Assembly (NCBI GenBank): GCA_963736875.1
Contig: CAVTQH010000002.1
Span: 199,927-263,926, forward strand
DNA: 64,000 bases
Direction of reading: 5' to 3'
Source of the DNA: Candidatus Amesbacteria bacterium
Lineage (GTDB): Bacteria; Patescibacteriota; Microgenomatia; CAZETR01; Amesbacteraceae
A program made the position numbers and the translations under genes. Below are positions 40,522-63,927 of the stretch, one piece after another (position 1 is the first letter of the stretch; each line of letters begins with the position of its first letter). A model generated the notes under the pieces. The model worked only from the letters and a program-made list of their open reading frames with translations, ran no database searches and had not been told where the DNA came from.

Positions 40522-40549
40522 AGTATTATTTTACCCCAATCAAAGTAGT

Positions 40550-42169: not shown

Positions 42170-42342
42170 AGCGTCCGATTATACAAGTTATAGGTTATTT
42201 ATCAAATTATCATGGTAAGATACTCAGATGGGCAAAGAAAATCCGATACCCTCAACCGACTCAAAATCTTGGAATCGAGGGGAATCAAAGAGGTGTCGAT
42301 ATCGAGCATAAGGTAGCCGGATTAATCCGGGGTTTACCTCAT

Positions 42343-46623: not shown

Positions 46624-46750
46624 ATAAAAGGGGATTATATACCTATGGGGCCAGCTGCAGGATATGATTAAAACCCTCGGTCCTGACGCTAAAATTGCCG
46701 ATATTCAGAATGCCGTTCGGGAACAAAGTAAAACAAGGCGCAGGAGATAA

Positions 46751-47341: not shown

Positions 47342-47438
47342 CTGATTTTAACCCAAATTTCCAAACTGTAGTTTCTCAACACCGGGTCATGGCGCGCTCA
47401 TGTCACCGGGCTGATAAACACCTTCCGGCACCCGAAGG

Positions 47439-47948
47439 TCAAGACCTGTTTCCCTTTTGAATTTTTAATTCTATTGCTCTTTGGATTATTCTTTCTCCGA
47501 TTTCTCCCCAATCAAAATATTCCCGGTAATCTTTTGGATTGATAAGTTTAATCTCCGTAATACTTCCGTCTGGATCTTTTTCGAACTTTCCCAGAGGTTC
47601 GACAATAGCGCAAAACCGAAGTTGATAAACAGTATTATCATCGGGAGTTGTAACTTCTTGTACTCCTACAGGAAAGGCTTTTAAAACTTTCATATTAGTT
47701 TCTTCCTGAACTTCTCTGATTAAGGTTTGCTCAAAGGTTTCCCCTTTTTCTATGTGTCCTCCGACCAGACCCCAACCTTTGCCGTCTTCCCCGCTTTCCC
47801 CCCTTACTATTACCAGGTTGTCATCACAGAAACAAACTCCGTAAACCTGCTGGCATTTATCGTGGGGTAGAGAAGAAAAAGAATCCAAATCATAGTATTT
47901 CACTTTTACAACATACCCTTTCCAAATAAATGACGAATTTATTGTCAT
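47439..47948 (-). CDS. NUDIX hydrolase
   Basis: Nudix box GGHIEKGETFEQTLIREVQEETNM. Confidence 0.7.
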   Translation of the reverse strand: MTINSSFIWKGYVVKVKYYDLDSFSSLPHDKCQQVYGVCFCDDNLVIVRGESGEDGKGWGLVGGHIEKGETFEQTLIREVQEETNMKVLKAFPVGVQEVTTPDDNTVYQLRFCAIVEPLGKFEKDPDGSITEIKLINPKDYREYFDWGEIGERIIQRAIELKIQKGNRS

Positions 47949-47989
47949 TTTATATATTATATGCGTTTTTGTATTTCCTTCCCTCTGCT

Positions 47990-48040
47990 CATGCAGGCAT
48001 GCCCGCCGAATTACAGTACCCCATCACCCCGGATCTTCAC
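47990..48040. repeat. copy 1 of a ~50-bp intergenic repeat (core aTGCCyGCCGAATTrCAGTAyCyyrTCAyCCCGrAT)
   Basis: atgcccgccgaattacagtaccccatcaccccggat: about 40/50 identity to copies at 55445-55496 and 63087-63138. Confidence 0.55.
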
Positions 48041-48105
48041 AGCCCGGAGTTAAGGAAAACGCATTTGAAAATACAGGGTTGAAAATCCCTTATTAGAGAC
48101 CTATA

Positions 48106-48774
48106 ATGCCACCCATGCGGACAGAGCAGGAGCGGGGACAGATCATCATCCGCCAGCGTGAGGGCAAGCCACATTTACAGGCATACGGATTTGTGGATTT
48201 CGGCAGTTTAATTGAAACCGTTTCCGAAATGGGCTTGAGTGAAAAAAGAGCCTCAAGAATAAAAAAAATAATCACTGCCGGAAGTGATCAGGTCCAGAAT
48301 TTACTGGCAACCGGAGGCGCCATCACTACGGGTGGCCGGATTGTTGCCATGGGTGAGGAAGACAGCCATTTCATTGAGACTTTCTTTATATCCAAACCGG
48401 AAAAAGTGATTACTCATGCCTCGGGGGCTGAAGTGGAAGGAATCGCCCGTTTCAGAGACAAATACGAACTCTATTTAAGACCCAGGGGAAAAGTAATGAT
48501 TTTCAGGGAAAATGCCGGTAGCCAACTCGGATATGATGTTTATAGATTGGGCAGTTGCAGTTTACGGTTTGCGGACACGGCTGATGATAAAGTGGGGTAT
48601 GAAGGCGTAAGGGATGCTGATTCCCTGTTCAGGGCTGTTGCCAACCGTTTCACCCGGATGTATCTGCAAACCGGAATTCCTTTAAAAGGCGTGGTTGGTC
48701 CGGAGACATTATCCAAGCAGCTTCTATTAAACATTGCCGAAAAATCCGGGCGGTCGGTTCTGAATCGGTATTGA
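48106..48774 (+). CDS. hypothetical protein, 222 aa
   Basis: ORF only. Confidence 0.3.
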   Translation: MPPMRTEQERGQIIIRQREGKPHLQAYGFVDFGSLIETVSEMGLSEKRASRIKKIITAGSDQVQNLLATGGAITTGGRIVAMGEEDSHFIETFFISKPEKVITHASGAEVEGIARFRDKYELYLRPRGKVMIFRENAGSQLGYDVYRLGSCSLRFADTADDKVGYEGVRDADSLFRAVANRFTRMYLQTGIPLKGVVGPETLSKQLLLNIAEKSGRSVLNRY

Positions 48775-48780
48775 TCTTCT

Positions 48781-49488
48781 TTAATAATTTAATACGGCAA
48801 AATCCCCAGCCCTTAAAATTTCCATGAAGACGCTCATTGCCTCGTATTTACCGTTATCAAAGACAGGCCGTTTGACTCTCCATTCAAAGGTATCCGCCGC
48901 CCGATTTTTCCTGCCTTCAACAACCAATAGTTTATCCCTTTCCATAATCAGGCCGTTTTGCACACCTATGACAATGGGGGCAACCCAGCCGCTTCTTCCG
49001 TCGCGAACCCACTGAAAAGTCTCTCCCCTGATTCTTTGGAAAGGATTTTTTTCCAGAACGGTGGTTTCAAGCCGGTGTCCTGTTAAGTCAATTACCGGTT
49101 CTTTATCCGCCAGACGCAGAACCGGCAGGGCAATTATCCTGCCGGTTTTCCGCCAGGATATGGTGGCCCTGTCCAGCTCCTCGTCGGTCAGGTCGGGTAT
49201 ATTTATTCCGGCCGTCCCCACAACCAGGATTTCCCGTTTATGAATGATGGATTTTTTTAAAACCCCTTGCGCGTATTTAGGGATGATACCCCGGGTGTAA
49301 TCCAGCAGGTTCAGATATCTGACTTCGGTCTCCGGACAAGTCGCACCCGCAAATGCTTCCGGCAAACCGGCCAGGAGTTCCAAATCCGCAGGATCCTTAA
49401 ACCTGGGGGCATACGTTTCCATTACAATCCGTCGTGCCCAATCGGCATATTCATCTGTATCTTGGGGAGATTGTTCCGATGCAGCCAT
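48781..49488 (-). CDS. hypothetical protein, 235 aa
   Basis: ORF only. It is convergent with the previous gene. Confidence 0.3.
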   Translation of the reverse strand: MAASEQSPQDTDEYADWARRIVMETYAPRFKDPADLELLAGLPEAFAGATCPETEVRYLNLLDYTRGIIPKYAQGVLKKSIIHKREILVVGTAGINIPDLTDEELDRATISWRKTGRIIALPVLRLADKEPVIDLTGHRLETTVLEKNPFQRIRGETFQWVRDGRSGWVAPIVIGVQNGLIMERDKLLVVEGRKNRAADTFEWRVKRPVFDNGKYEAMSVFMEILRAGDFAVLNY

Positions 49489-49629
49489 GGGTCAAGTTTA
49501 TCACCGCCCATCTCCCCTTCCTGCAGCAGATAGAAAAATCTCAGGAAGTCAATCTCAAGATCAATAATCTAATCTAAAACTTTCTATATGGTTTATATAC
49601 TCGGAAGGAAACTTAAATTTATTAGCAGC

Positions 49630-50009
49630 TTATATTATTCTTTCCAAATAGTCTGACTGATCAAACTTACCTGCGGTTAGATTGTCATTATCGATATAAA
49701 CCCATGATTTAATATAAATACCTTCAAACCTTACATTTTCTTCTACTCTATTGTAAGTCTTTGGGATTTTATTATAACCTTCACTCTTATCTAATGCGTT
49801 CAAAGCAACATCATTAATATCAAATAATAGTCCATATACCTTTGGAACACGAATTTGTAGTATCAATAGCTATATTAGCCTTACAGCGGTTATTTTAAAA
49901 AAAATTCCCAACCTTCTAGTATAGCTACTCCTAATAACCCGAAGTTATCTACACATCTAACCTTCATTTGATTTAAATCCATGTTTGAACCATAAGCAAA
50001 GTATTTCAT
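49630..50009 (-). pseudogene. AIG2/GGACT (gamma-glutamyl cyclotransferase-like) family gene, frameshifted at an A8/T8 homopolymer (~49888-49895)
   Basis: An N-terminal piece MKYFAYGSNMDLNQMKVRC... (start ~50009) and a C-terminal piece ...VYGLLFDINDVALNALDKSEGYNKIPKTYNRVEEN... (49630-49866) lie in different frames. Confidence 0.45.
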
Positions 50010-50096
50010 TTTCTGCCTACAAAATAACCCAGACGAAGTAGGAGGTAAAGGTATTTGTAGCTTTCATACTTGCTGGGCGTGAAACAATTGAAGAAG

Positions 50097-51818
50097 TTAT
50101 GTTAGTAGATTTTTTAGATTCATAACATACTGATCTTCAAATGAATAACTATACTTTTTAGCCAAACTCCAGAATGAATCTTTAATATCTTGCTCATTGC
50201 GAATCAATTTTCTAGCTTCTGATAAGGAGGTAATAATATTACCCCTTGCCCTTGATGCCACCCTACTCAAATTAGTTGGTATCGTTGTTCTTAGTTTCCA
50301 GCTTTTAACGTCCCATATTAAATTAATACATGAATCAAGGTGGGTTTCATATTCACCAAACAGATCCTCGACCGCAAATCCATCAGGTAGAGTAATTATA
50401 TAAAGGTTACTTTTGGAATTAGGTATTAAATATTTTTTAAATCCATTGCTTAATTGAGGATCACCAACGATATATTTACTATACACATCTTTTCCTTTAT
50501 CGCTATCAACAATAAAGTATGCCTTCTTTTGTACAAGATCGGGTATATTTAATAAAACATCTATTGTTCTAGTTATTTGAGCTACACCTTCAAAACAGTT
50601 GGTAATTTTAATACCAACCTGTTCGTAAACATCCTTTGTTTCAGCTCTTTTATCTTCAATAAATGTTAGTAATTTGTCCTGAGAGGTATAGAAATATACA
50701 TAAAAGTTAGAATCTCCCATTAATTTCCCAATTTCAACTACTTCCTCCTTTGTCCATAATTTCATCTTTTTGTTTTTAACAACCACATGCTCTTTTAATA
50801 GACACCACTCTATGTTATCACCCCCTAAATTACTTGAGGCTAATATTATTGGGGAGTGTGTAGAAACGACCATTTGGATGTTCTTCAGCCAAGCTTGTGA
50901 ATTAAGTTCTTGAGAGAACTTGACCATTAAATCACCATGGAGAAAGGATTCTGGTTCTTCCAACAACCATATTGGGTGATATTCTCCTCTGTGAAGTGAC
51001 CTATCACTATCAAGTAAATAATGTGTTTGATATAAGATGGTTGATTGAGCTCCCGTTCCATGTGAGGTAAGCTCAATTTCTGGAAGTGTTTGTTGCCCTT
51101 TAAAACTTATATCAGAGATTTCAACAATTTCTTTAATATTTTTAGGAAGGTCAAGAGCTGCTTCACTTCCAGGCCACATAGTTTGCAGGCTTTTAGTTAA
51201 TGAGGATGAAAGGTACGATCTGGCTTGTCTACGAAATTCCTCCCACTTTTTTTGTAACTCATTAATACCTATAGATAAATTTGGGTTTCTACCCCAATTC
51301 GCTAATAACCTTTGTCTTAATTTTTCTTGCGCATTCTTAAGTAGATCTCTACCTTCTTGGGGGTGAATGTATGTCACCCTTACGCTCATTAACAACTTTT
51401 TAACATCTGGGTCAATATCGTCGAATGAATCATAAACATAACCTAAAAAGGTATATGAAAACGAAACTTTCCTTGATGATGGTAAAAATGTGATTATTTT
51501 CTTAATATCCGCCTTCTTATTCTTGAACAACCTTATCAGGCGATTTCTTAAAACATTACTAGTTAATTCTTCTAAATTAAATGTTATTGAGATCTCAGCA
51601 TGGTTATACCCTGCCTTTTTTGCTAGGTAGGTGGTTCTGTTTAGAAAAGTTTCATCTTGATATAACGAATCGTTAAAAAAGAAGTTTAAAGCATTTAAAA
51701 TCGCCGTTTTCCCTGCATTATTTATCCCTATTAAATAAGTTCCTTGGGATAAATTTATTTGAGTCTTTGACCGAAAGCACTTAAAGTTTTCTATTTCAAG
51801 CGAATTAATTAAACTCAT
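50097..51818 (-). CDS. OLD-family-like ABC-type ATPase with C-terminal TOPRIM/DUF4435-like domain
   Basis: Walker A GINNAGKTAILNAL, signature-like SHGTGAQS, Walker B IWLLEEPESFLH, H-loop VVSTHSP. The C-terminus has FEG...(Glu) and FIVDSDKGKD (DxD) as in TOPRIM. Confidence 0.55.
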   Translation of the reverse strand: MSLINSLEIENFKCFRSKTQINLSQGTYLIGINNAGKTAILNALNFFFNDSLYQDETFLNRTTYLAKKAGYNHAEISITFNLEELTSNVLRNRLIRLFKNKKADIKKIITFLPSSRKVSFSYTFLGYVYDSFDDIDPDVKKLLMSVRVTYIHPQEGRDLLKNAQEKLRQRLLANWGRNPNLSIGINELQKKWEEFRRQARSYLSSSLTKSLQTMWPGSEAALDLPKNIKEIVEISDISFKGQQTLPEIELTSHGTGAQSTILYQTHYLLDSDRSLHRGEYHPIWLLEEPESFLHGDLMVKFSQELNSQAWLKNIQMVVSTHSPIILASSNLGGDNIEWCLLKEHVVVKNKKMKLWTKEEVVEIGKLMGDSNFYVYFYTSQDKLLTFIEDKRAETKDVYEQVGIKITNCFEGVAQITRTIDVLLNIPDLVQKKAYFIVDSDKGKDVYSKYIVGDPQLSNGFKKYLIPNSKSNLYIITLPDGFAVEDLFGEYETHLDSCINLIWDVKSWKLRTTIPTNLSRVASRARGNIITSLSEARKLIRNEQDIKDSFWSLAKKYSYSFEDQYVMNLKNLLT

Positions 51819-51870
51819 ATGTTTTTTAAATAGCGGTTATGGCCTTAAAATAGCCTTAAATTTCTTAATG

Positions 51871-52500
51871 TCAAGCTATTCTAGTACCAGTATTTACTCC
51901 GCCGTGGTGGGAGCAGGTACCAGAGCGATGTTGACTAAAACTATACGTACCATCACCACACTTTGCAGTTGCCCCCACCGGAGGAGAATTGTAATAAGTA
52001 GGTGACTGTACTTTGTTTCCGTCTACATTTATATAGTAATCTGGGCTAGATTGAGTTTGGGGAGCTATTGTTGGAACTGGTTTAAATGTTGGTCTTGGAG
52101 TCGGCTTAAGAGTGGGGGTCAATGTTGGTGTTGGAGTTGGAGCTACAGTTAGGACCGGGGAAATAATTTCACTGGCTGGACTCAAGATTTCTACTCCCCC
52201 AATTTGTCCCTCAACTTTCGGCGACTCTGTTTTTATTTGGATGTTTGATCGTGGAACAGTGGAAACGTCTACTGGGATTTTTGGACTTGACCAAAACGAT
52301 GTTGAAATCAACGCCAATAAACACAAAGCCGCGATCGACCCAATTTTTACTTTATGCTTCCAGTTATTTCTGAAAATGACATAAGCAAAGAAAAAAGGCC
52401 AGAAAATGATTGCCAAAAGTAGTTTCCACCAAGTTTTATACCAGGGTCGTGGGGCAGACACGTCCGATTGGACGGTCATTAGCCTGGATGTTAGTTCCAA
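51871..52500 (-). CDS. membrane protein with PT-rich linker and C-terminal DUF3761-like Cys domain
   Basis: TM; (PT)n linker; YINVDGNKV...ATAKCGDGTYSFSQHRSGTCSHHGGV. Confidence 0.4.
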   Translation of the reverse strand: MELTSRLMTVQSDVSAPRPWYKTWWKLLLAIIFWPFFFAYVIFRNNWKHKVKIGSIAALCLLALISTSFWSSPKIPVDVSTVPRSNIQIKTESPKVEGQIGGVEILSPASEIISPVLTVAPTPTPTLTPTLKPTPRPTFKPVPTIAPQTQSSPDYYINVDGNKVQSPTYYNSPPVGATAKCGDGTYSFSQHRSGTCSHHGGVNTGTRIA

Positions 52501-52554
52501 GATGACCTATAGTCAAGTTTTACCGGGCGTGATCACATTATTTTAGACGACTTT

Positions 52555-53010
52555 TCAAGGTTGTGTTTCATACATAGCAACCTCACATTTTTTAGCAGTA
52601 AGACTTGTGCCACCTCTTGAATATGGTAAATCATGATCGAAATGTAGGTTCTGATTTGACTTACATATTACACATTTTCCTTGATCTCTTTTCCAAACCT
52701 CCTTTTTTACTTCCGATGGGATTAGTCTAGTATGAGAAAGTTGTACTTTCTGAATATCTCCCGAGATAGATTGGTTACCTGATAGTTTTAAAATAAAACG
52801 GAATACATTTCTATTACTATTGTTTTTCACTGTGTAATCAATAAGTTCGAAGTATCCCTTTGATGACCAAACTCCATTCATTATTTTTTCATAAACTTTC
52901 ACAATCTCAGGGTTGGCATCTTTTTCCTTGTATCCTTTTACTGCACGAATAAATAATCCATTCTGTGTTAATTTCCCTGAAGGTAATATTTCTGGCTGAT
53001 CGTCTAATTT
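52555..53010 (-). CDS. HNH endonuclease (start codon uncertain)
   Basis: CVICKSNQNLHFDHDLPYSRGG is an HNH motif. The frame is open back to ~53010 with no ATG. The upstream 64-aa ORF 53032-53226 is in the same frame, separated by TAA and TGA. Confidence 0.55.
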   Translation of the reverse strand, partial: KLDDQPEILPSGKLTQNGLFIRAVKGYKEKDANPEIVKVYEKIMNGVWSSKGYFELIDYTVKNNSNRNVFRFILKLSGNQSISGDIQKVQLSHTRLIPSEVKKEVWKRDQGKCVICKSNQNLHFDHDLPYSRGGTSLTAKKCEVAMYETQP

Positions 53011-53428
53011 TGGATTATGTCATATGCTTTTTTAGATATATCGTGTCCTTCGTATTCTATCGGTAATTCCATCGGAATATATTTTATCTTTATATGGGGC
53101 ATTTGATCTTTGGGACATCAAAATTAAAGAGTAACGAGGATTTAGTCGGTAATTCATTCCTCGTTGAAGAGTTTGAACATTTTCTAAATCACACATTTCC
53201 CTGTAAGAAAATATTTGATCAAGCACAGGTCAATTCCTTTTTAAACATAATTTGTATTTATTGGCTATTTAATTTACACTCTCCCCAAAAGAAAGCAATT
53301 GATTTGGGTCGAAAATATTATTTCCTCTTATTGATTCGTCTATTTCTCTTATTTTTTTATAACCTAAGAATTTAATAGCCTCGTTTAATTTTAAACACGG
53401 ATTGGAAAACGTTGGCCTTTTTAGCTCA

Positions 53429-54382
53429 TCAAACACTTTCCTTTTTCTTTCTTCGGAAGAGACAATAAAAAGTGGGTAACTTGAATTTGGGTTTCCTGAC
53501 TCTTAAATCTGATAACCTCAATATTCCTGAGTAAATCGAAGTCGTATGTTCAATTTCGAAGGCTGATTTAATTGAATATGGTCCATATTTCCATACAACA
53601 TCAATATTTTTAATTGTCGGAGGTACATCAAGTGATTCATGAAATTCTGATAATACGTGTTCTTTAAATCTATTACCTTGAAAGGACTTTCCTTGGTCGT
53701 TAGAGGGAACCCATATGTCAAATTTTGCCAATTCACCTAGCCTTATTAACCTCCATTGTATCTCAACATGTTCAGTAGTCGATTGTTCAATGTGTTCGTC
53801 AAGTTCTGTTATTGCCTTTGTTTGTTGTGGTATTTCTCTGATTTTTTCTCCCTTTTCTATTGTCTTTAGTGTACCTAATAAATCCCCATATCTGCTTAAG
53901 AAATATTTAGTTGCATCTTCATTTATCATTGTTAATCCTTGTGGAGAATAATTCTCCTTATATCCAAATAGTGGATTAATTTTTGATAGCGGTACCGAGA
54001 CTCTCTCTTCGTTAAGAATAAAATATATTAATTCCCAAGTTTCGCCCTCTGGAGTTTCATGCCAAAAATACTTAGCTAATTCTTTGCTTCTGACTTTAGC
54101 CGCTATCTCGCCAACAAATCTTATGTAACCATTATTATAAATAAGTACTACGTCTCCAGACTCCATTTTTTCCCATCGAGTTTCATTTAAAGGTCCTGGA
54201 ACAGCTCCCCAGACAATAAAGGGTAAGTTATGGTAGATATTTTCTAGATTACTGATCTCTTTTTGTGGAAGATAATTTCTTATTTCGTTAAGATTTCTTT
54301 TGTTTTGAATTGTATCCTCAAAATGACGTTGAGCCTCGTAGTTACCACCAGCAACTACAATAAATACTTTTCTAATCTTCAT
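53429..54382 (-). CDS. EVE/PUA-like domain fused to a restriction-endonuclease-like (PD-(D/E)XK-like) C-terminal domain
   Basis: The N-terminus reads PFIVWGAVPG...MESGDVVLIYNNGYIRFVGEIAAKV, EVE-like. The C-terminus reads ...IDVVWKYGP...FEIEHTTS.... A 2-nt gap separates it from the MazG-like gene. Confidence 0.35.
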   Translation of the reverse strand: MKIRKVFIVVAGGNYEAQRHFEDTIQNKRNLNEIRNYLPQKEISNLENIYHNLPFIVWGAVPGPLNETRWEKMESGDVVLIYNNGYIRFVGEIAAKVRSKELAKYFWHETPEGETWELIYFILNEERVSVPLSKINPLFGYKENYSPQGLTMINEDATKYFLSRYGDLLGTLKTIEKGEKIREIPQQTKAITELDEHIEQSTTEHVEIQWRLIRLGELAKFDIWVPSNDQGKSFQGNRFKEHVLSEFHESLDVPPTIKNIDVVWKYGPYSIKSAFEIEHTTSIYSGILRLSDLRVRKPKFKLPTFYCLFRRKKKESV

Positions 54383-54384
54383 AT

Positions 54385-54855
54385 TTAAAGCTGATTATAC
54401 TTTGTGTGTTTACCCTTTGTCTTTTCAATAGGGTACCTTAGATTGTTCTTTGCTATTTTCTTATCAAGAGCTGCCAATATATCAATATTTAAATCATTAC
54501 TCATAAGTAATACCCAATACAACACGTCAGCTAATTCTTCGCCTATTTCATTTTTATGATTCTTAACATGTTCTTCGATCTCTTCTTTGTTCTTCCATTG
54601 GAAGTGTTCCATTACTTCTGCTGCTTCTAGAATCAGAGATAGAGATGCATCTTTAGGATTATGAAACTGCTTCCAATCCCTAGCATTCCGGAAATTGATA
54701 ATTCTCTGAGTTAAACTTTTTATTGTTTTCACTTTTAGCCTGATTTTACTCCTTTTTTCCCTTTTTTCGCGGATTTGATAGGATATAGATAGTGAAATTA
54801 ATAAGCGTACGGAAATTGGGATTTTATAAAAGCAAGTTCTTTGTCTTTTTCGCAT
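54385..54855 (-). CDS. MazG-like nucleotide pyrophosphohydrolase (all-alpha NTP-PPase, YpjD-like)
   Basis: RDWKQFHNPKDASLSLILEAAEVMEHFQWK...IGEELADVLYWVLLMSNDLNIDILAAL. The real start is probably ~54760. Confidence 0.55.
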   Translation of the reverse strand: MRKRQRTCFYKIPISVRLLISLSISYQIREKREKRSKIRLKVKTIKSLTQRIINFRNARDWKQFHNPKDASLSLILEAAEVMEHFQWKNKEEIEEHVKNHKNEIGEELADVLYWVLLMSNDLNIDILAALDKKIAKNNLRYPIEKTKGKHTKYNQL

Positions 54856-55436
54856 CTGCTTCTATTTTGGTAGTGCTGTTGTTTGTATTAAATAATTTAT
54901 TTATTTCCCTGGCTGGAACCTTACTTTTCATAGTACTTTTTAAAAAATACAAACCCTATGAAAAAGGTTTGTTGGGTGAAACGGACATCAGCGATGAATT
55001 GAGGAAACTTCCACCTGAATACCATTTCTTTTCCGATATAGAAACTGACCGGAGTAAGGCCAATATTGATAAAGTGCTTATCGGACCAACCGGGGTATGG
55101 GTAATAGAAGTTAAAAATATGCAGGGTAAGTTTACTTTTGATGGCCAGAAACTGTTAAAAAATGGTTATCCGATGCCAAAAGATATCCTTAGCCAAACCT
55201 GGAAGGAATCCTATACCATCCGCGATTTAATCAAAGAAAGATTAAATTTTGGTGTTACTGTCCAGCCAGTACTGGTTTTTTCCAGTTCCAAGGCATACTT
55301 TAAGTTTGGAATGAATAAGGTGAAGGGGATTTATATTATCGGGAAGAAATGGTTGAACCAGTTAGTGAATGAAAAAACAACCCAACCTCTAGACCCCCAA
55401 ACCATCGATAAGATTTCAGCTATCTTCAAATTTTAA
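54792..55436 (+). CDS. NERD-domain (nuclease-related domain) membrane protein
   Basis: Two N-terminal TMs, then GLLGETDISDELRKLPPEYHFFSDIE...IDKVLIGPTGVWVIEVKN. Confidence 0.55.
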   Translation: MKLISVRKLGFYKSKFFVFFASASILVVLLFVLNNLFISLAGTLLFIVLFKKYKPYEKGLLGETDISDELRKLPPEYHFFSDIETDRSKANIDKVLIGPTGVWVIEVKNMQGKFTFDGQKLLKNGYPMPKDILSQTWKESYTIRDLIKERLNFGVTVQPVLVFSSSKAYFKFGMNKVKGIYIIGKKWLNQLVNEKTTQPLDPQTIDKISAIFKF

Positions 55437-55444
55437 ACCTCAAA

Positions 55445-55496
55445 GCGTGAGCACGGATTTATGCCTGCCGAATTACAGTACTCTGTCATCCCGAAT
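55445..55496. repeat. copy 2 of the ~52-bp intergenic repeat
   Basis: gcgtgagcacggatttatgcctgccgaattacagtactctgtcatcccgaat: 30/30 then 18/22 identity with copy 3. It is followed by a CCGG-rich hairpin and a T-run. Confidence 0.6.
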
Positions 55497-55535
55497 CTGC
55501 GCGGTCCGGGCCGGTCCGGTGCCGGGAGTACTGAT

Positions 55536-55886
55536 TTATTTTTTGTCCAAAAAAGCAGCCATTGCGGAAACCACCCGCGCTTGCCAATCCAGAATATGGG
55601 CTTCCTGTATCTGCTCCCCTTCGGTGGTAATTGAAGTAACTGATTTTTTAACTACTTCCGCTTCCCAGTCCACCTCCCGCAAATCGTCCATTGGTCCTCT
55701 TGACGGGGGCATTTCCGTATTGCGCTTCTGGAACATGTACAGATTCGGGCATTCAACTTCATAAGTCTTGGCTGTTTTACCGTCGTCCGCAAATTGTTCC
55801 CTGGCCATTTCCGCCAATTTTCCCAAGGCAAAGCATTTACGCTCTATTCCTACCACCGGGCACCCTTCACATCTTACTACCGGCAT
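55536..55886 (-). CDS. small Cys-containing protein, 116 aa (CEGCP...C...C)
   Basis: ATG preceded by GAGGAG. It lies 9 nt downstream of the 58-aa gene. Confidence 0.35.
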   Translation of the reverse strand: MPVVRCEGCPVVGIERKCFALGKLAEMAREQFADDGKTAKTYEVECPNLYMFQKRNTEMPPSRGPMDDLREVDWEAEVVKKSVTSITTEGEQIQEAHILDWQARVVSAMAAFLDKK

Positions 55887-55895
55887 ATCCGCATT

Positions 55896-56072
55896 TTACT
55901 CCTCGTTAAATCTTGGTGTGGAAGGGCACCGGCCGGCGGATCCGCAGGTACCGTCATTTTTTACCAAAGTGCAGGCGGGATCAACCGGGCACTTCGGCTT
56001 TAACTCTTTAACTTTATCTGCATCTTTTCCGCTTGGTTGGATTTGTGGCTTGGTTTCGGTCTTTACTGCCAT
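55896..56072 (-). CDS. Cys-rich small protein, 58 aa (MAVKTETKPQIQPSGKDADKVKELKPKCPVDPACTLVKNDGTCGSAGRCPSTPRFNEE)
   Basis: ATG to TAA, six Cys in the C-terminal 30 aa. Not in the ORF track. Confidence 0.3.
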   Translation of the reverse strand: MAVKTETKPQIQPSGKDADKVKELKPKCPVDPACTLVKNDGTCGSAGRCPSTPRFNEE

Positions 56073-56135
56073 TTGCGGATTATAGGATAAGTTGTTCGTG
56101 ATGTAAACAGTTTTGCGTCTCCGGGGGTGCGGGGT

Positions 56136-57476
56136 TTAATTTACGGGGATGGTGGAAGGAATGTAATAGACATTGCCCGTCAGCTGTCCGTTTAAGACGT
56201 TGGCCGATGAATCGGTGGTGTCGGAATCAAAATGATAAAGCATCATGGTATCGGCATCGGGGGTAAACGGCAGTTTGGAAGGAGTGAAATTTCCGGTGTA
56301 TCTGGCGGTATCGGAAACCCTCACTTCATCGATGACTCCCTGGAAGAAATCATAAAACGGCAGGTTTTTATCAAACAACCCGGCTCCGATGTGCAGACTC
56401 CGGCCGTTATTGCAGACAATCATGCCTACGTTGTAGGAATTTAATTTGACTCCGTTTTCGTAAATATGCAGGTTGCCGTTTTGTAAAACCCCGGCGACAT
56501 GTTTCCAGGAATTAAACTCTCCCGGGGTAACTGTGATGTAATTGCAGATGTTCCAGGGGTTCCAGTTACAGTTACCGGAATAAACCACCGTTTGGTTGCA
56601 GCCGTTGTTCGAACTTTGGACATCAAAGTAATAAATATACGAAACATTTGCTCCGTTGGGTATGGCATCCATTGATAGCCGGTAAGTATTATCGACAATG
56701 CGGTATCCGTAGCCGGCTTTTGCCGGGGCAATCGGCTTTATCCAGGCCTCAACCGTAACATTATCAGTCGGCAGATTCATCTTGGAAGAATACGGCACTT
56801 CCATATACTGCAGCACCGGGGTGTAAGACGGCGGGTTAAGGCCGGCAACTTTGCCTCCGAAAACCGCGGCTTCGCCCCAGGGGTAAGCCGGGGTGGGAGT
56901 GGGTGCCGGAGTGGAAGTGGGTGCCGGAGTCGGGGTGGGAACAATTAAACAGTCTTCTGATTTCATTAAAGGCCGGCACCAATAGCAGTCAGGGGAAATA
57001 ATATGGGTACCGGGACAGCCGGGATCATTGACTCCGAATTTATTGTATCTGGTTTCGGCATCAAGATTTTCGGTCTTGGATTTGGGGTTATAGCACAGAA
57101 CCGCCGAATTACCGCACCTGGTAATATGGATTTCTTTAAGTTCCGGCGTGGAAAGATATATTTCTTCAAATTTCGGGTCCTTGATCAGTTCGTGGATGCA
57201 GTCGGGAATATCCGTCAGAGGAACACCTGCGTTTAATTCATTCCGGCAGTCGGGATTCACATCCCAGGGGAGTTTTTTATGACTGCTGTAATACCCGATA
57301 GCGGAATTAATCACATCCTTGATTACGACTTTGGAACTGGCATCCGCGGCCTTGGAAATCTGTTCGGCGGGATTAACGGCAAAAAGAACCGTGGACAAAA
57401 TGACTGTCAGAATACCCATGACCATTAAAAGCTCAATCAGGGTAAAACCGGTGGCAATTTTATACCTCGTAACCAC
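56136..57476 (-). CDS. type IV pilin/pseudopilin-like protein with large lectin/LamG-like C-terminal domain
   Basis: A class III signal with prepilin cleavage/methylation motif G|FTLIELLMV, a (TP)n linker, and a Cys-rich jelly-roll-like C-terminus. Confidence 0.6.
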   Translation of the reverse strand: MVTRYKIATGFTLIELLMVMGILTVILSTVLFAVNPAEQISKAADASSKVVIKDVINSAIGYYSSHKKLPWDVNPDCRNELNAGVPLTDIPDCIHELIKDPKFEEIYLSTPELKEIHITRCGNSAVLCYNPKSKTENLDAETRYNKFGVNDPGCPGTHIISPDCYWCRPLMKSEDCLIVPTPTPAPTSTPAPTPTPAYPWGEAAVFGGKVAGLNPPSYTPVLQYMEVPYSSKMNLPTDNVTVEAWIKPIAPAKAGYGYRIVDNTYRLSMDAIPNGANVSYIYYFDVQSSNNGCNQTVVYSGNCNWNPWNICNYITVTPGEFNSWKHVAGVLQNGNLHIYENGVKLNSYNVGMIVCNNGRSLHIGAGLFDKNLPFYDFFQGVIDEVRVSDTARYTGNFTPSKLPFTPDADTMMLYHFDSDTTDSSANVLNGQLTGNVYYIPSTIPVN

Positions 57477-57508
57477 TTTGATTAATTATAGATGAAGGAA
57501 GTACTTAT

Positions 57509-60500
57509 TTGCTTCCTGGCAACCAAATCCGGATAGTGATACTATTAATAGTAGGATTTATGAAAAGTGAATATTCTGCTTTGGCAGAGCTTCTGATAGC
57601 AAAAGGAGTATCCGATACGGAAACTGTGTCCCGGATAAAAGATGCGGTTCTGGAAAAATTCCGCGACGAATATCCCAAAAGCCCCGCGGACGCTGCGGTC
57701 CTGGTCAATGAAAAGTCCGGTGATGTGATGATTTTTTCGGGTAACGAAAACATCACCCCGCCGAAATTCGGGGAAAAAGCCGCAGCCGTTGCCCGGCAGG
57801 TAATGATCGAAATACTGGCCCAGGCGGAAGGAAGCGGGAAGGGAAAAGCCAAACCTGTAACGGGGAGTCAGGTTCCGGGCCCCTGGACTTCAATCTTGGC
57901 CAACCTTTTTTTCTGGGGATACAACATCTATTTTGCCTTATTTAACCTGGGGCTGGTGTTTTCATTTTTCACCCCCGGATCCCTGACCGCCTTTATAGAT
58001 AACCTGAAAAATCTGGGAATTTTTAAACTGTTTTTTGCCCTGATCCTTATAGCTACCCCTTTGGCTTCCATGTACCTTACTCTCAGAAGAAAACTTTATA
58101 CCGCCCCCGGACGGCTTTTAAGGCTGTTTTTCCTGTTTGAACTGCCGGTGGTATTTGCGTGCCTTCTGCCCCTTGCTATGCTGGGGCAGACCACGCCGTT
58201 TTCAATTCTGTTTTCCCTGGCGGTTCTGGCCCTGCCGGGAATAATTTACCTGTACACCGCGGATATCAAATTTTCCGGCATTTGGCTGAAGGCCGTCTTC
58301 TTTATCCAGGAATTTGTGTTTATTATTGCGGCTTATTTGGGCCTGTTGCTGGCTTTTGTCGTCCCGGTAATTCTGGGAGGAGCCGCCAAATCGCTTTTTG
58401 ATTTCGGTCACTATTCATACGGTTACGGTTATTCCGTGTTTCAGCCTGAAATGGTAATCGGATTTTTCCTTAGTATGGGTTTAAACACCATCATCATGCT
58501 TCTGATTACGGGAGTGCTTTCCCTCCCATATCTGATACTGATGTTTTTAGGCAGAGCGGTTAATAAAACCCGCGCCGTTTTAACAGAGGTTTTGGGTAAA
58601 GAGCAGCTCTTTACCCTGGAAGCTGTTTTTGCAGTAATTATTCTCACTCTGGGAGCAATTTCAGCCTACCAACCGACAGGAAGTAAACTTCTGGATCCTT
58701 TAAGAAATATTTCCACGAGCACCACTTTTGAAGCCAAAGAGCAGATTGCCAAAGACCTGACACCGCAGGAGAAAAAACTAAAAACCCTGGTCGCTAACAT
58801 CAGCCGGGCCAGGAGCCGCTACCTGACGACCAAGGATGACAAAACAATACAACGTGCATATGAAGATGTTTTTGATATGAATGATACTTTAGCCGGAGCG
58901 GTGAACAGCATGTTCCTGACAGCAGCCTACCCGCTGGTTTACCAGGGAGAAAGCCGGGACAGTTATCAGCTCGGGCAGAATTTCTATTACATTTTCGGGT
59001 ATTCTCCTTTCGAAAGCACTGCCAAAACCAAAACTTCCATTGCCCCCGTCCCGGCATCTGCCAATAATGTGCTTTTAAACTACCGCAAAGTTACGGTCAC
59101 CCCGGACAGCGGCGGACTGACGGCCAAAATTGCCATTGAGGAGGAATACACCAATTCAACGAGCCAGCAGCAGGAAGTGCTATACGAATTTACTCTGCCC
59201 CGGGGAGCGGTCATGACCGGCCTGAAACTGGGACCGGATCTGGAATTTGAGGGCATCATTGCCCCCAAAGGCGCCGCCCAGAAAACTTACGAACAGCAGC
59301 TGCAGGTTCGAAGGGACCCGGCTTTATTGGAAGAAACCGGACCGCGGCAATACCGCCTGAGAGTATTTCCTGTCCCGGCCAAAAATGATTACGCCACTCT
59401 CAAAGGCCGGCGGCAAAAAGTCAGATTTGAATATGCCGCAGCGGCCACCCCGGAGGGCTTCCCTCTTCCGGAAATCACCCGCAAAACCAATGTCTATACC
59501 ACGGGAGCCAGCCAGATAATGCTTGTCACCGATCAGGGCAATAAACCGCTCTCGGAAAAAGATACTTATATCCCCCTGACCACTCTGGCCAAAGCGGATT
59601 TTTGTCAGGGCACGGGTGCTGCAGCCGGGACAATGACGGATCTTCTGGCCAACCAGCAGGATTTTAAATCCGTGGTCTGTGCCGACCCGGGAGGATTGCT
59701 GGGGAGTATTTCCGGATTAAAAATTGCCGTATTTTACGACGTCTCGGCGGAAAACAGAACCAAAAACCAGGAAGCGCAATTAAAGATTCTCGGTGAAAGC
59801 AAAAAATTCCTGACCAACAATAAAGTTGACCTTTACAAGTACAGCGATTTGCCGGGACAGGCGGTCGGCCTGACGGCTGATAATTTTGCCGAAGAGTCCA
59901 AGGTTACGTACTTCGGGAAAAGCAATGCTCTGGCGGCTTTGAACACTTTCAGCCAAAAATATGACCTGGTGCTGATCCTTACAGGCAATGCCGCATTTGC
60001 CCAGACGGAAATCCTGCCGTTTGCGTATCCGACGCAGGTATATCTTGTGCATCCGCAATTGCCGCCCGCCTACACCATGAAACTGGCATCCAAACTGCTG
60101 CAAACCGGCGGTGACGCCACCGGTTCTCTATCGGAAGCTCTGAAACTGTATGTGCTGAACCGGGCTATGGAAAGCAAATACGCAAAAGGCGGATACCTGG
60201 TCAACGATTATGTCGGGGCGACTTTCCCCGTTCAGGGAACGGACTCGCTTTTGGGAGTGGATAAAAACGGGGGAGCCGCGGCCGCTCTGGTAAACAAGGG
60301 TATCTACAGGACATCCCTGACCGGAAAACTGGGCGACATTTCGGGAGACGTCAGTATTCTGGATAAACTGCATGCATTTGCCCGGGAAGCCCAAATAGTT
60401 ACCGTCTATTCTTCACTCATTTCCCTCGTGAACGCCCAGCAGCTGCAGACACTGGAACAACTGCAGCAGCAGTACAACCGGTACGAAGACCGGACTTTGA

Positions 60501-60829
60501 TAGAAAACAGAACGATTACAACACCTCCCATGGAATTGAACCAGATGGAGTTGCCAACTACCAGATTCGGCTCCATCGGCAGTTCCCTGTTTAACGTGGA
60601 TATGATACAAACCGATTTGAAAAGTGTCAGCGGCGGCGGAGGTAATTTCGGGGGAATCAGCGGAGCCGGGGTACTTTCTAACCCGAGTGCAAGTTTTGGC
60701 GTCAGTGGCGGCGGTATGGGACTGGGAAGTTTGGTGTCAGGCCTGCCCCTGTTTCTGATAGCTAATGCCCTGCTTCTCGCATTTGGTCTGGGATTCTATA
60801 TTGTCAGGCTGCTGCGCCACAGGAAGTAA
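57509..60829 (+). CDS. giant polytopic membrane protein (1106 aa) with Gly-rich C-terminal anchor
   Basis: A ~110-aa soluble N-terminus, ~10 TMs, a ~650-aa extracytoplasmic domain, and a GGGGNFGGISG...GGGMGLGSLVSGLPLFLIANALLLAFGLGFYIVRLLRHRK tail. Confidence 0.4.
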   Translation: MLPGNQIRIVILLIVGFMKSEYSALAELLIAKGVSDTETVSRIKDAVLEKFRDEYPKSPADAAVLVNEKSGDVMIFSGNENITPPKFGEKAAAVARQVMIEILAQAEGSGKGKAKPVTGSQVPGPWTSILANLFFWGYNIYFALFNLGLVFSFFTPGSLTAFIDNLKNLGIFKLFFALILIATPLASMYLTLRRKLYTAPGRLLRLFFLFELPVVFACLLPLAMLGQTTPFSILFSLAVLALPGIIYLYTADIKFSGIWLKAVFFIQEFVFIIAAYLGLLLAFVVPVILGGAAKSLFDFGHYSYGYGYSVFQPEMVIGFFLSMGLNTIIMLLITGVLSLPYLILMFLGRAVNKTRAVLTEVLGKEQLFTLEAVFAVIILTLGAISAYQPTGSKLLDPLRNISTSTTFEAKEQIAKDLTPQEKKLKTLVANISRARSRYLTTKDDKTIQRAYEDVFDMNDTLAGAVNSMFLTAAYPLVYQGESRDSYQLGQNFYYIFGYSPFESTAKTKTSIAPVPASANNVLLNYRKVTVTPDSGGLTAKIAIEEEYTNSTSQQQEVLYEFTLPRGAVMTGLKLGPDLEFEGIIAPKGAAQKTYEQQLQVRRDPALLEETGPRQYRLRVFPVPAKNDYATLKGRRQKVRFEYAAAATPEGFPLPEITRKTNVYTTGASQIMLVTDQGNKPLSEKDTYIPLTTLAKADFCQGTGAAAGTMTDLLANQQDFKSVVCADPGGLLGSISGLKIAVFYDVSAENRTKNQEAQLKILGESKKFLTNNKVDLYKYSDLPGQAVGLTADNFAEESKVTYFGKSNALAALNTFSQKYDLVLILTGNAAFAQTEILPFAYPTQVYLVHPQLPPAYTMKLASKLLQTGGDATGSLSEALKLYVLNRAMESKYAKGGYLVNDYVGATFPVQGTDSLLGVDKNGGAAAALVNKGIYRTSLTGKLGDISGDVSILDKLHAFAREAQIVTVYSSLISLVNAQQLQTLEQLQQQYNRYEDRTLIENRTITTPPMELNQMELPTTRFGSIGSSLFNVDMIQTDLKSVSGGGGNFGGISGAGVLSNPSASFGVSGGGMGLGSLVSGLPLFLIANALLLAFGLGFYIVRLLRHRK

Positions 60830-60837
60830 ACTATTAA

Positions 60838-61271
60838 TGGAAAAAAGGGGAGTACTCACCAAAATATTGACGGTTACCGGAGCTTTTCTGGTATGGTTTC
60901 CGGTTCTGGCACCGTTTATTTTCTCTGCCGGCTCGCTTATGGGAGACGGCATATTTAGGTTTGACTTCCTTATGCCCGCCGAACTTTTTCCTCTGATACT
61001 TATCGGCGGCGGATTACTTTTCTGGGCATCCCGGCGGGCAGGTTCACAGCAGAAGTTCATCGGTTGGAGTCTGGTTCTGACCGTGGTTTTTCTGGTCAGT
61101 TGCCAGGGGTTAGCTATGATAACGGGGTTAGCGTCAGGTGAAACCGAACCCGTGGGACTTCCCTTAATAGCCGTTACTTATTTGCTGGCTGGTTATATTC
61201 TGGGGGCGGTGGCAGTGGGGGTGGGGGGATTACTTCTGCTTCGTGATCTGTTTATATTCTCACGAAGATAG
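60838..61271 (+). CDS. small polytopic membrane protein (~144 aa)
   Basis: Four TMs. It starts right after the stop of the giant gene (track ORF 60765-61271). Confidence 0.3.
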
Positions 61272-61367
61272 AATAACTGACCATACAGGCATTCCAGTAA
61301 ATAGTATCGCAGCTGGATCCAGGCAACGACCAGGTAGTCGAGAAACGCATTTGCGAATGCCGAATGG

Positions 61368-62549
61368 TCACTTCTTTAATACGGATTTATAGTGCAAGGC
61401 CAAAGCTCCCAGGCCTGTCCACAAAACTACCAGTGAGATGAAAAATCCCAAGAACGGAATCATTTTAAGTAAATAAATCGCTGTCATTCCCGCGGCGAAA
61501 ACTGCATAAACCGAAGGTTTTTTCCATCCGGATTTTTCTGACAGCCAGATACCCAAAGATAAACCCGCCACAATTTTAGCCAGATACATATTTATCAGAA
61601 ATACCAGAATTACCAAACCGGCCAGAGGTATTCCTACTATGGTAAGCGCCAGAATTATCAGTGCCGGAATAATAGCTATGCAAATCAAAAATCCTGTTCC
61701 CAGACTGGTCCAAAATGAATTGGTTACCCGTTTTGCCGACTCGGAAAATGTTTTATTAAACAGTTTAAGGCAAATAAGTCCGACAATCAGCACCCCGATC
61801 AGGGAGAAAATATTTGCCGCCAGTCTGAACGTCGCAAAAGCTTTCGGCAAATCTTTCCTGGCAAGTTCCAAATTATTCTTACCGGTGAACTTATTCTCAG
61901 TCTTATTAATCGTTCCTCCGATAGTTGCCGAATCCGAGATATTGATTTCTGTTGTCCTGTCCCCCAAAGCGTAGTATAAATCTTTGGCGATTTTTGCATT
62001 CGGACCGATCGAAATGTTTCCGGCTCCGATGCGGACTTCACCGCCCACTGCCGAGTTGACGTCCGCGTTTCCCGCGCCCGCAAAAATATTCCTTTTGACC
62101 GGGGAATTAATCGTGATGCTTCCGGTTCCCGCCAGTATCGAACCGCTGATTGATGAATCCGCGTCAATACTGACATTTCCCGCTCCCACCAGAAGCGAGT
62201 CGCCGATTATTGCATTACTTACAATCACATTCCCGGCTCCGACATAAGCATTCTGGCTTACCCGCCCGCTCAAATACACAATTCCGCCGCCCGCGTGCAG
62301 GGACCCGTTGATGATGCCGTTGATGCGGATGGTTTCTGCCCCCGCGTACACATCACCATTTACCGTTCCGAATATTTCCACCGTTTGCGCGGCAACCAAC
62401 AGATCATCATTGATTATTTCACCCTTGGCAATTGTTACCACTCCCTTTTCCACGGAAATTACTTTAGCCGCGGCTTCGGTCACGGGAAACGTTAGCAATG
62501 CCAAACCAAAAACCAGTAAAGCCGGTAAGAACTTACTGATAAATTTCAC
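61368..62549 (-). CDS. bactofilin-like (DUF583 beta-helical repeat) protein with signal peptide and C-terminal TM domain
   Basis: Repeats GTVNGDVYAGAETIRINGIINGSLHAGGGIVYLSGRV...GAGNVIV..., then 4-5 TMs. Confidence 0.5.
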   Translation of the reverse strand: MKFISKFLPALLVFGLALLTFPVTEAAAKVISVEKGVVTIAKGEIINDDLLVAAQTVEIFGTVNGDVYAGAETIRINGIINGSLHAGGGIVYLSGRVSQNAYVGAGNVIVSNAIIGDSLLVGAGNVSIDADSSISGSILAGTGSITINSPVKRNIFAGAGNADVNSAVGGEVRIGAGNISIGPNAKIAKDLYYALGDRTTEINISDSATIGGTINKTENKFTGKNNLELARKDLPKAFATFRLAANIFSLIGVLIVGLICLKLFNKTFSESAKRVTNSFWTSLGTGFLICIAIIPALIILALTIVGIPLAGLVILVFLINMYLAKIVAGLSLGIWLSEKSGWKKPSVYAVFAAGMTAIYLLKMIPFLGFFISLVVLWTGLGALALHYKSVLKK

Positions 62550-62708
62550 AGTATCATTATATATCCCAATTCAATTAATTAATATAAAAGTCTTGAAGTA
62601 GCAGTACTCTATCTATTGCCCAGTGCTTAGTCCCTTGTGCCTTTCCCTATTTCCCTCCCAAACTCATGCCCGTATTTTACTCCCTTTTGTCATGAAGAAC
62701 GATACCGG

Positions 62709-62993
62709 CTATACAGCAGGACTGATCCGGAGCTTGTGCTCGATTTTTACTGTTCTCTCTGCCAAATCATTTACTTTGCTATTAACACCCGAAAGAATAG
62801 TCTGTTCCTCCCTGATGACTTTCAACTCTCCCATGACTTCATCCATTTTCCCGTAAAATTCCTCTTTGTTCGGGAGATGTTTGATATCATCTTTGGTAAC
62901 AAATTTCCGGTTTTCGTCGAGGGTGGTTTCTACCAGACTTTTGATATTAGTTAAATCCTTTTTGGTTAACGGCATGAAGTTATTAAACGTCAC
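62709..62993 (-). CDS. hypothetical protein, 94 aa
   Basis: ORF only. Confidence 0.25.
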   Translation of the reverse strand: MTFNNFMPLTKKDLTNIKSLVETTLDENRKFVTKDDIKHLPNKEEFYGKMDEVMGELKVIREEQTILSGVNSKVNDLAERTVKIEHKLRISPAV

Positions 62994-63086
62994 AAAACAT
63001 GGGGTGTCAATAAGACAGACGGATAATTATGCAATGCAGGCAGGATAATAAATCCGCGCGCAATCAGGCACATGCCCCGACAGTTG

Positions 63087-63138
63087 CGCGTGAGCACGGA
63101 TTTATGCCTGCCGAATTGCAGTATCCTGCCATCCCGAA
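63087..63138. repeat. copy 3 of the ~52-bp intergenic repeat
   Basis: gcgtgagcacggatttatgcctgccgaattgcagtatcctgccatcccgaat. It is preceded by an inverted repeat aaatccgcgcgca...tgcgcgtgagcacggattt. Confidence 0.6.
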
Positions 63139-63165
63139 TGCACTACCAGTGTATAATTTCAGCAA

Positions 63166-63927
63166 ATGAGCAGCTACTACAATCCCCAAAGGACCAAAAA
63201 TTTGTACGATCCCGAAACCAAAGAAAGGTTTCGTTTAAGCCGGTCAAAAATTGATCTTTATATCAATTGTCCCCGCTGTTTTTATCTGGACCGGAAACTC
63301 GGGGTGGCCCAGCCGCCGGGTTATCCGTTTTCTTTAAACTCCGCGGTGGACAAGCTTCTCAAAAAAGAATTTGATATCCACCGGGCTCACGGCACTACCC
63401 ACCCCCTGATGAAAACTTATGGCATAGACGCGATCCCCCTGGCCCACGAAAAAATCAACGAGTGGCGGGATTCATTAAGAGGGGGAATTACCGTAAATAT
63501 CAAAGGAACAAATGTGGTGGTGACCGGGGGAGTGGATGATGTCTGGGTTACTCCGTCCGGGGAATATCTGATAGTGGACTACAAAGCCACTTCCAAAGAG
63601 GAGGAAGTTACTCTGGATGCCGACTGGCAGATAGGATACAAGCGCCAGATGGAAATATACCAGTGGCTTTTCCGGCAAAATGGTTTCCGGGTGTCAACGA
63701 CCGGAATATTTGTCTACTGCAACGGCAACACCGATAAGGAAGCCTTTGACGGCAGGCTGGAGTTTGATATCAAGATTATTCCGTACGAAGGTGACGATTC
63801 CTGGGTGGAAAACACCATTAAAGATGCCATTACCTGTTTAAAGCAGGACAAACTGCCCGATCCGGGTCCCGATTGCGACTTCTGCAAATACCGGGAAGCA
63901 GCCTCAAAAGTCGAGGGTAATACCTGA
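63166..63927 (+). CDS. Cas4/RecB-like PD-(D/E)XK nuclease family protein (DUF83-like) with 4-Cys cluster
   Basis: N-terminal CPRC, GGVDDVWV, IVDYKAT (D-x-K) and C-terminal CDFC. No CRISPR array nearby. Confidence 0.55.
   Translation: MSSYYNPQRTKNLYDPETKERFRLSRSKIDLYINCPRCFYLDRKLGVAQPPGYPFSLNSAVDKLLKKEFDIHRAHGTTHPLMKTYGIDAIPLAHEKINEWRDSLRGGITVNIKGTNVVVTGGVDDVWVTPSGEYLIVDYKATSKEEEVTLDADWQIGYKRQMEIYQWLFRQNGFRVSTTGIFVYCNGNTDKEAFDGRLEFDIKIIPYEGDDSWVENTIKDAITCLKQDKLPDPGPDCDFCKYREAASKVEGNT

Follow-up and report, generated by a model that had tools for sequence, protein, structure and literature searches.

Whether a short intergenic repeat that occurs three times in a 64-kb stretch of a Candidatus Amesbacteria contig (CAVTQH010000002.1; the whole stretch is termed the window) marks the borders of acquired DNA and, if so, in what manner, is the question considered here. 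In an initial annotation of the window, the copies of this repeat were described as delimiting successive accessory blocks of ~7.5 kb. Comparison with relatives contradicts that description for the first block, and the copies are not a pair of attachment (att) sites bracketing islands. The reading favoured here, tentatively, is that of a lineage-private, non-coding, interspersed repeat that operates at the DNA level (unit of up to 65 bp, core of 36 bp) and that is tied to the junctions of acquired cassettes; any function of the repeat is putative. The matter extends beyond this one locus. Bacteria of the Candidate Phyla Radiation (CPR) have tiny genomes in which recognisable mobile-element machinery is often missing and, to our knowledge, very little is known of how they gain or exchange accessory and defence genes.

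The repeat and the steps in base composition at its copies

Copies of the repeat were sought inside the window by repeat finding, local alignment, an nhmmer profile, a covariance model and a gapped search. Repeat finding returned a family with members at 47983-48034 (69%), 55445-55496 (the reference) and 63088-63139 (92%), all on the plus strand, with distances of 7462 and 7643 bp between successive copies. In local alignments, copies 2 and 3 were identical at 48/52 positions, copies 1 and 2 at 39/49 (47999-48047 against 55461-55509) and copies 1 and 3 at 28/36. These values bear out the initial annotation, in which a repeat of ~52 bp had been placed at 47990, 55445 and 63087, with 30/30 and then 18/22 positions shared by copies 2 and 3 and about 40/50 by copy 1. 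From the pairwise alignments, it follows that 36 bp are common to all three copies (47999-48034, 55461-55496 and 63104-63139), comprising a core that begins at ATGCC. An additional 16 bp leftward are common to copies 2 and 3, while an additional 13 bp rightward are common to copies 1 and 2. The borders of the copies are thus both sharp and mosaic, with different extensions being common to different pairs, and copy 2, because it presents both the left and the right extension, is the fullest unit (~65 bp). The GC content of the repeat, 0.50-0.60, is above that of the low-GC cargo on its left.

When the window was scanned with a 20-mer from the core, ATGCCYGCCGAATTRCAGTA, allowing at most three mismatches, three matches were obtained, with 0.00 expected. 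Likewise, the nhmmer profile and the covariance model, run with filters off, detected only the three direct copies (E of 1e-14 to 1e-21; next best, ~0.1). The gapped search revealed a fourth copy, termed copy 3', which is partial, gapped and inverted, and which faces copy 3; its score of 34 compares with a maximum of 26 in 300 local shuffles. The 13-bp inverted repeat that had been reported to precede copy 3 was found as a match of 15 nt (87%) that is part of this larger feature. Together with positions 63091-63126, copy 3' forms an imperfect palindrome of ~105 nt (DNA folding energy of -28 to -29 kcal/mol; z of -3.6 to -4.1). All three direct copies and the inverted partial copy fall in the variable right-hand 16 kb of the window. 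Creation of the repeat by assembly of a chimera at a shared k-mer is unlikely, given that exact matches between copies do not exceed 30 bp and that those junctions mapped with relatives do not lie at the repeat.

Gene calls backed by domain matches or conservation were used to place the copies. Copy 1 lies between the divergent NUDIX (47439-47948, minus strand) and p222 (48106-48774, plus strand) genes, copy 2 between the convergent NERD (54792-55436, plus strand) and p116 (55536-55886, minus strand) genes, and copy 3 between the divergent p88 gene (62709-62975, minus strand) and a gene encoding a Cas4-like PD-(D/E)XK nuclease (63166-63927, plus strand). Copy 2, at the right margin of an AT-rich island, begins 8 bp past the stop codon of NERD, while 13 bp separate the end of copy 3 from the TATAAT of the Cas4-like gene. 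As such, the earlier statements that every copy is intergenic and that copy 2 occupies the right end of an AT-rich island (GC of 0.34) between convergent genes, namely NERD and p116, were both upheld, with each copy being flanked by supported genes. The gene setting of the copies is, however, inconsistent, comprising two divergent regions and one convergent region, and no sigma-70 promoter or intrinsic terminator common to the copies was found at the three sites. That the copies occupy no fixed place with respect to genes or promoters speaks against a role in cis regulation.

What the copies do share is their position relative to base composition. At each, GC content is low at the left and genome-typical at the right, with the polarity being the same in 3/3 cases. 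Measured over 500 bp, GC content rises from 0.38 to 0.47 at copy 1, from 0.38 to 0.52 at copy 2 and from 0.43 to 0.48 at copy 3, with steps as large occurring at fractions of 0.041, 0.006 and 0.143 of window positions, respectively. The low-GC segments concerned are known from different kinds of evidence. For copy 1, the replaceability of the segment is shown by comparison with relatives; for copy 2, comparison shows variability at the left junction of the island, with the right end being deduced from composition; for copy 3, the evidence for the segment is compositional only. As the far junction of each segment is without a copy, the arrangement is one-sided.

In the mechanism considered here, the repeat would act, or would have acted, at the DNA level at points where accessory DNA was swapped in. 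With each copy placed, in one orientation, on the genome-typical-GC side of a low-GC segment, i.e., the NUDIX cassette, the defence island or the p88 segment, the repeat may either be carried at one end of incoming cassettes or else serve as a one-sided anchor or target beside which foreign DNA joins. The route may be homology-facilitated illegitimate recombination or else a one-ended insertion for which the enzyme is encoded elsewhere.

Several points weigh against this reading. With only three or four copies available, the statistical basis for an association with GC steps is thin, and it was the island that drew attention to copy 2. A cognate recombinase or transposase was not found in the window, the copies present no terminal inverted repeats or target-site duplications, and the internal hairpin of the repeat (see below) is energetically insignificant as DNA (0, -2.7 and -5.3 kcal/mol for the three copies). 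For the island and the p88 segment, the right junction is placed by composition only, being covered by no relative. Finally, the core was not found beyond chance in genome, metagenome, viral, plasmid or phage collections, such that any mobility of the repeat is putative. Should the repeat nonetheless reliably mark one side of swapped-in cassettes, exchange points in CPR genomes could be found genome-wide and, eventually, so could the enzyme; should the repeat be only a passenger, it would be a minor curiosity of one lineage. What can already be stated is that the AT-rich island lacks bracketing att repeats and that it sits in a hot spot after p222/p235, as described in the following section.

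Comparison of the locus with relatives

The window carries bacterial genes, including those for SecDF, RelA/SpoT, RecJ and MiaA, as well as a type IV pilin signal, and the closest named homologues of its enolase come from Candidatus Roizmanbacteria (CPR, Microgenomates). Three metagenome contigs from relatives, termed L011, L034 and L035 and amounting to 39 kb in total, were compared with the window by blastn. The L011 enolase is 91% identical to that of the window, while in L034 and L035, p222 is 72-82% identical and the adjoining DNA is up to 95% identical. The p222 gene and its promoter (TTGAAA-17-TATAAT) are kept in 3/3 relatives, with homology beginning exactly at position 48078, and p235 and the DNA up to 49532 are conserved in L035 (89%).

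To the left of this conserved region, the 668 bp that contain the NUDIX gene, its promoter and copy 1 are swapped in L034 and L035 for a ~680-bp cassette encoding a MerR-family protein, such that the region corresponds to a replaceable slot (Table 1). In L011, 21 bp stand in for the whole of 46751-48077. The left border of the slot is formed by a GC-rich hairpin that is kept in the relatives whatever the content of the slot. Copy 1 varies together with its cassette, neither of which is found in the three relatives. Indeed, the repeat, gapped forms included, is absent from all 39 kb of these contigs, and no internal repeats of at least 28 bp that could play the same role were found in L034 or L035.

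To the right, homology to L035 stops sharply at 49532/49533, precisely where the low-GC island begins. No copy of the repeat was detected at this junction, even when the gapped search was included. The accessory-block description of the initial annotation does not survive these observations: p222 and p235 are residents, being syntenic in L011, L034 and L035, all of which are without copy 1; the true left junction of the island is copy-less; copy 1 lies inside the 668-bp slot; and neither a recombinase nor a tRNA or tmRNA gene is present. Because p222 and p235 are resident and position 49532/49533 is without a copy, copies 1 and 2 do not bound an accessory block. The first block is, rather, part of a small swappable slot, followed by two resident genes and a 5.9-kb defence island, with only the right end of the island touching a copy.

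The genes of the island, found in both orientations, encode an Old/GajA-like ATPase, an HNH protein, a restriction-enzyme-like protein, a MazG-like protein and the NERD protein. Beyond p222/p235, L034 (10670-20020) contains type I restriction-modification genes and genes for an AAA_15 ATPase and SNase, while L035 (3630-12880) contains helicase-domain genes, a DUF488 gene and uncharacterised genes. Judging from these sequences, the site after p222/p235 looks like a swapping hot spot, with different accessory content in each genome.

Table 1. Coordinates, within the 64-kb window, of the repeat copies and associated features.
Feature	Position	Strand	Remarks
Copy 1	47999-48047	+	Most diverged; core and 13-bp right extension, without left extension
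Copy 2	55445-55509	+	16-bp left extension, 36-bp core and 13-bp right extension
Copy 3	63088-63139	+	Left extension and core
Copy 3'	63021-63062	-	Inverted, gapped, partial copy opposite copy 3
Conserved GC-rich hairpin	47382-47409		28 bp; left border of slot
Replaceable slot	47410-48077		L034 9292-9972 and L035 1493-2171 hold a MerR-family regulator
Low-GC defence-type island	49533-55444		GC 0.343; 5.9 kb; left junction mapped against L035; right end adjoins copy 2
Low-GC segment left of copy 3	62550-63087		GC 0.407; holds p88 (88 aa) and copy 3'
Candidate 5+4 bp hairpin in core	55468-55494	-	Equivalents at 48006-48032 and 63111-63137
Terminator-like hairpin and T-run after NERD	55476-55545	+	5' arm CAGTACTC within copy 2 core; specific to copy 2
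Best non-copy match to repeat in window	36123-36160	-	Inside Memo+AMMECR1 gene (35294-36904), sense strand

Other differences between the window and its relatives were also noted. L034 additionally lacks most of the neighbouring Ham1 gene, of which ~23 bp at the end remain. At 46646-46750 of the window, only the last ~35 codons of a gene encoding a 68-aa protein are left, the 5' part having been lost, while the gene is intact in L011 (895-1101) and L034 (9038-9244). A stretch of ~2.2 kb (40523-42702) is missing from L011, where the flanks at 40522 and 42703 stand 17 bp apart; it carries an open reading frame (ORF) of 539 aa, for which neither Pfam nor NCBIfam gave a match, together with a second open region, and is without a copy of the repeat at its borders. 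The 1106-aa VIT-domain protein (57509-60829) was of no help in extending synteny, as its nearest non-self homologue is 46% identical and found in an unrelated context.

Alternative explanations and known systems

Searches of the tested ORFs at 46.7-64 kb and of most larger ORFs elsewhere in the window against Pfam, PADLOC and NCBIfam revealed no integrase, recombinase or transposase, and no Y1, HUH or RAYT-type gene was found in the window. ARAGORN detected no tRNA or tmRNA gene in the window and, with Rfam offering no match at the copies, the idea that the repeat is a tRNA or tmRNA fragment serving as an att site was rejected. At the gathering threshold, the only Rfam match in the whole window was RNase P RNA, and searches around each copy at E<=10 returned only noise. 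When GTDB genomes, JGI metagenomes and IMG/VR were scanned for the exact core, only chance matches no longer than the core were obtained, in DNA that is unrelated and mostly coding. Blastn searches of plasmid and phage collections gave no match, and nothing relevant was found in the literature on REP-like repeats or island direct repeats in CPR bacteria or Microgenomates. The repeat matches no known repeat, RNA or recombination-site family.

It is against this background that the explanation implied by the initial annotation, namely that site-specific integration left the copies as att-type direct repeats delimiting islands at 47990-55445 and 55445-63138, has to be judged. The presence of three direct copies in one orientation at near-equal spacing, the location of copy 2 at an island edge and the finding that the outermost copy is the most diverged, as an older junction would be, are all in its favour, and imperfect direct repeats of ~50 bp near an AT-rich defence island do recall the att sites of integrative islands. 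Yet the resident p222 and p235 genes and the copy-less left junction of the island contradict this explanation for the first block, no integrase or recombinase is encoded in either block, no tRNA, tmRNA or gene end overlaps a copy, and no single-copy 'empty site' was seen in the relatives (L011, L034 and L035 at the copy 1 locus, with the loci of copies 2 and 3 not being covered). Moreover, each variable segment has a copy at one end only, near the right end in the case of the NUDIX slot. Integration of this kind is accordingly considered very improbable.

A passive origin is somewhat easier to accept, if still doubtful. The repeat could be a selfish element resembling repetitive extragenic palindromes (REPs) or miniature inverted-repeat transposable elements (MITEs), surviving in the tolerant intergenic DNA of a flexible genome with no role in gene acquisition. 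REPs, also found combined as bacterial interspersed mosaic elements (BIMEs), are mobilised by RAYT transposases. As in such elements, the unit described here is tens of bp long, strictly intergenic and sharply bounded, contains an internal dyad and, as an inverted pair (copy 3'/copy 3), forms a long palindrome; moreover, no function-linked position is evident. Unlike REPs, however, the single unit has a perfect stem of only 4 bp, no significant folding energy and no conserved GTAG-type head. No stable palindrome exists within a single unit, and a strong one is formed only by copy 3' together with copy 3. Copy number, as observed, is also very low, with zero copies in the 39 kb of relatives, the three full copies are in one orientation and no RAYT-type gene is present in the window. 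As for MITEs, the ends of the repeat, GCGTGAGC... and ...CCCGAAT, are not mutually inverted, nor do the flanks of copies 2 and 3 have a duplication in common, so that neither terminal inverted repeats nor target-site duplications could be read from the sequence. Finally, the same polarity at three GC steps would be unexpected for a passenger, although the probability of this arising by chance is about 1 in 4.

Integron cassette arrays offer another comparison, since there, too, a conserved site (attC) is found at one end of variable cassettes, whether promoter-carrying or promoterless, in one orientation, and strand-specific folding has been proposed. By contrast, reading of the sequence shows the R''/R' inverted cores of attC sites (RYYYAAC...GTTRRRY) to be absent from the repeat, no integron integrase is encoded, and the cassettes are not arrayed but are rather 7.5 kb apart with resident genes between them, with one 'cassette' being a multi-gene island of 5.9 kb. 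The repeat thus lacks the testable defining features of att sites, REPs, MITEs and attC sites, and is filed here only as a 'short interspersed intergenic repeat.'

A likeness to the one-sided arrangement is offered by anchors of homology-facilitated illegitimate recombination or by the origin ends of IS91/ISCR-type elements, where a conserved sequence lies on one side of the acquired DNA and the other junction is unrelated, fitting the polarity of the three copies. This likeness is, however, an analogy only: genes for HUH or rolling-circle transposases were not detected, a donor molecule is not known and, for an anchor acting through homology, 36-65 bp is a short length. A bolder version of the junction-linked reading would posit an undescribed one-ended cassette-exchange system in Microgenomates (CPR), in which the repeat would be the conserved end or docking sequence. 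An enzyme from another part of the genome would insert or exchange small cassettes with their own promoters (NUDIX and p88), as well as entire defence islands, beside this site, with neither flanking repeats nor a local integrase being involved. Such a system is considered unlikely.

The possibility that the repeat acts as RNA, in cis or in trans, is, like passive survival, given limited weight. Here, the minus strand would provide a hairpin of 5+4 bp and a conserved single-stranded tail that could serve as an element of an untranslated region, as a processing or stability signal, or as a small RNA. In the RNAalifold consensus for this strand, the nine pairs of the hairpin are kept in 3/3 copies, with all 27 cells being paired; the changes comprise one compensatory double change of AU to GC and three one-sided changes that stay G-U. 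On the plus strand, by contrast, two pairs are lost in copy 1. The differences between copies 2 and 3, four in number, are all confined to the apical 12 nt, with two being compensatory and two lying in the loop, and, on the minus strand, copy 3 is followed by a strong hairpin and a U-rich tail. Against this stand the absence of an Rfam match even at E<=10, folding z-scores of -0.4 to -1.2 that are not significant, and a covariation shuffle control that, with three sequences, is likewise not significant (159/500). Thus, while the covariance and structure analysis that the initial annotation had proposed found pairing to be kept in the three copies, neither the control nor the energies lend it significance. 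In addition, the copies have no promoter or terminator in common, the transcript setting differs, with copy 1 lying upstream of NUDIX, copy 2 on the 3' side of p116 and copy 3 upstream of the p88 promoter (TTGACA-17-TTTAAT, identified by eye), and the element is absent from relatives. Folded as DNA, the 42-nt cores whose energies are listed above gave z-scores of +1.95, +0.22 and -1.54.

Of the looser options raised in the initial annotation, therefore, a recombination-related site or the end of a miniature element is compatible with the polarity of the GC steps in 3/3 copies and with the absence of copy 1 together with its cassette, whereas a shared terminator motif or a small non-coding RNA finds little support, given the lack of an Rfam match, of a consistent promoter or terminator, and of significant folding z-scores.

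A coding role for the plus strand seems improbable. The conserved ATG of the core opens an ORF in 3/3 copies (27, 57 and 21 codons; MPAELQY[PS]x[IT]P[ND]...), as would be the case were the repeat to encode a leader peptide or micro-peptide or to be a duplicate of the 5' end of a gene. Within the first seven codons, there are three changes, all being synonymous and in the third position, and the stop codon of the copy 3 ORF overlaps the start codon of the Cas4-like gene as ATGA. Nevertheless, the C-termini and lengths of the three ORFs are unrelated, codons 8-13 change mostly non-synonymously, no ribosome-binding site or promoter is shared, the ORF of copy 2 passes through a terminator and enters p116 in antisense, and the synonymous pattern has a p of ~0.08 after correction for six frames. 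Furthermore, no protein with such a start was present in any fetched locus, other than chance matches to the searched core DNA. A minus-strand peptide (xxYCNSAG...) was also considered and dropped, as its lengths and ends are not conserved.

The best match to the repeat outside its copies lies within the Memo+AMMECR1 gene and covers the VVSTDLSHYPDYNT segment of the protein. This 38-nt match resembles the left part of the repeat, with 14 nt being exact and, after a gap of 3 nt, a further 12/14 being identical; its score of 39 was reached by 0/300 shuffled elements. The repeat may derive from such a gene fragment or the match may be due to chance. No protein similarity past 12 residues was detected between the flanks of the copies and the Memo protein. 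Antisense pairing of minus-strand repeat RNA with Memo mRNA was likewise rejected, since the predicted energy of -49 kcal/mol was equalled by random windows (minimum of -49.7).

Further observations in the window

A TATAAT-like box is found, by eye, 6-9 nt before the start codon and without a Shine-Dalgarno sequence at p222 (48079-48115), NUDIX (47946-47962), p88 (62976-63010) and the Cas4-like gene (63152-63168). This arrangement suggests that leaderless mRNAs may be common in this organism. The p222 promoter is the only one of the four that was also called by a promoter scan and that is conserved in relatives.

At the gathering threshold, the RNase P RNA encoded at 2563-2831 (plus strand) was assigned to the archaeal family (RF00373, 88.8 bits). 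The highest-scoring model under laxer filters is that of bacterial class A, at 90.9 bits, below its cut-off of 100. In the alignment, a block of 43 model positions is absent, as is another helix near the 3' end. The RNA is a reduced bacterial type A molecule of ~269 nt, with the archaeal label being a threshold artefact.

Lastly, two adjoining ORFs at 19552-20905 (minus strand) encode the halves of a P-type ATPase (E1-E2_ATPase, 20366-20905; HAD hydrolase, 19552-20358). This region looks like a split or decayed third copy of a P-type ATPase gene, intact versions of which are found at 25055-27475 and 30638-33154.

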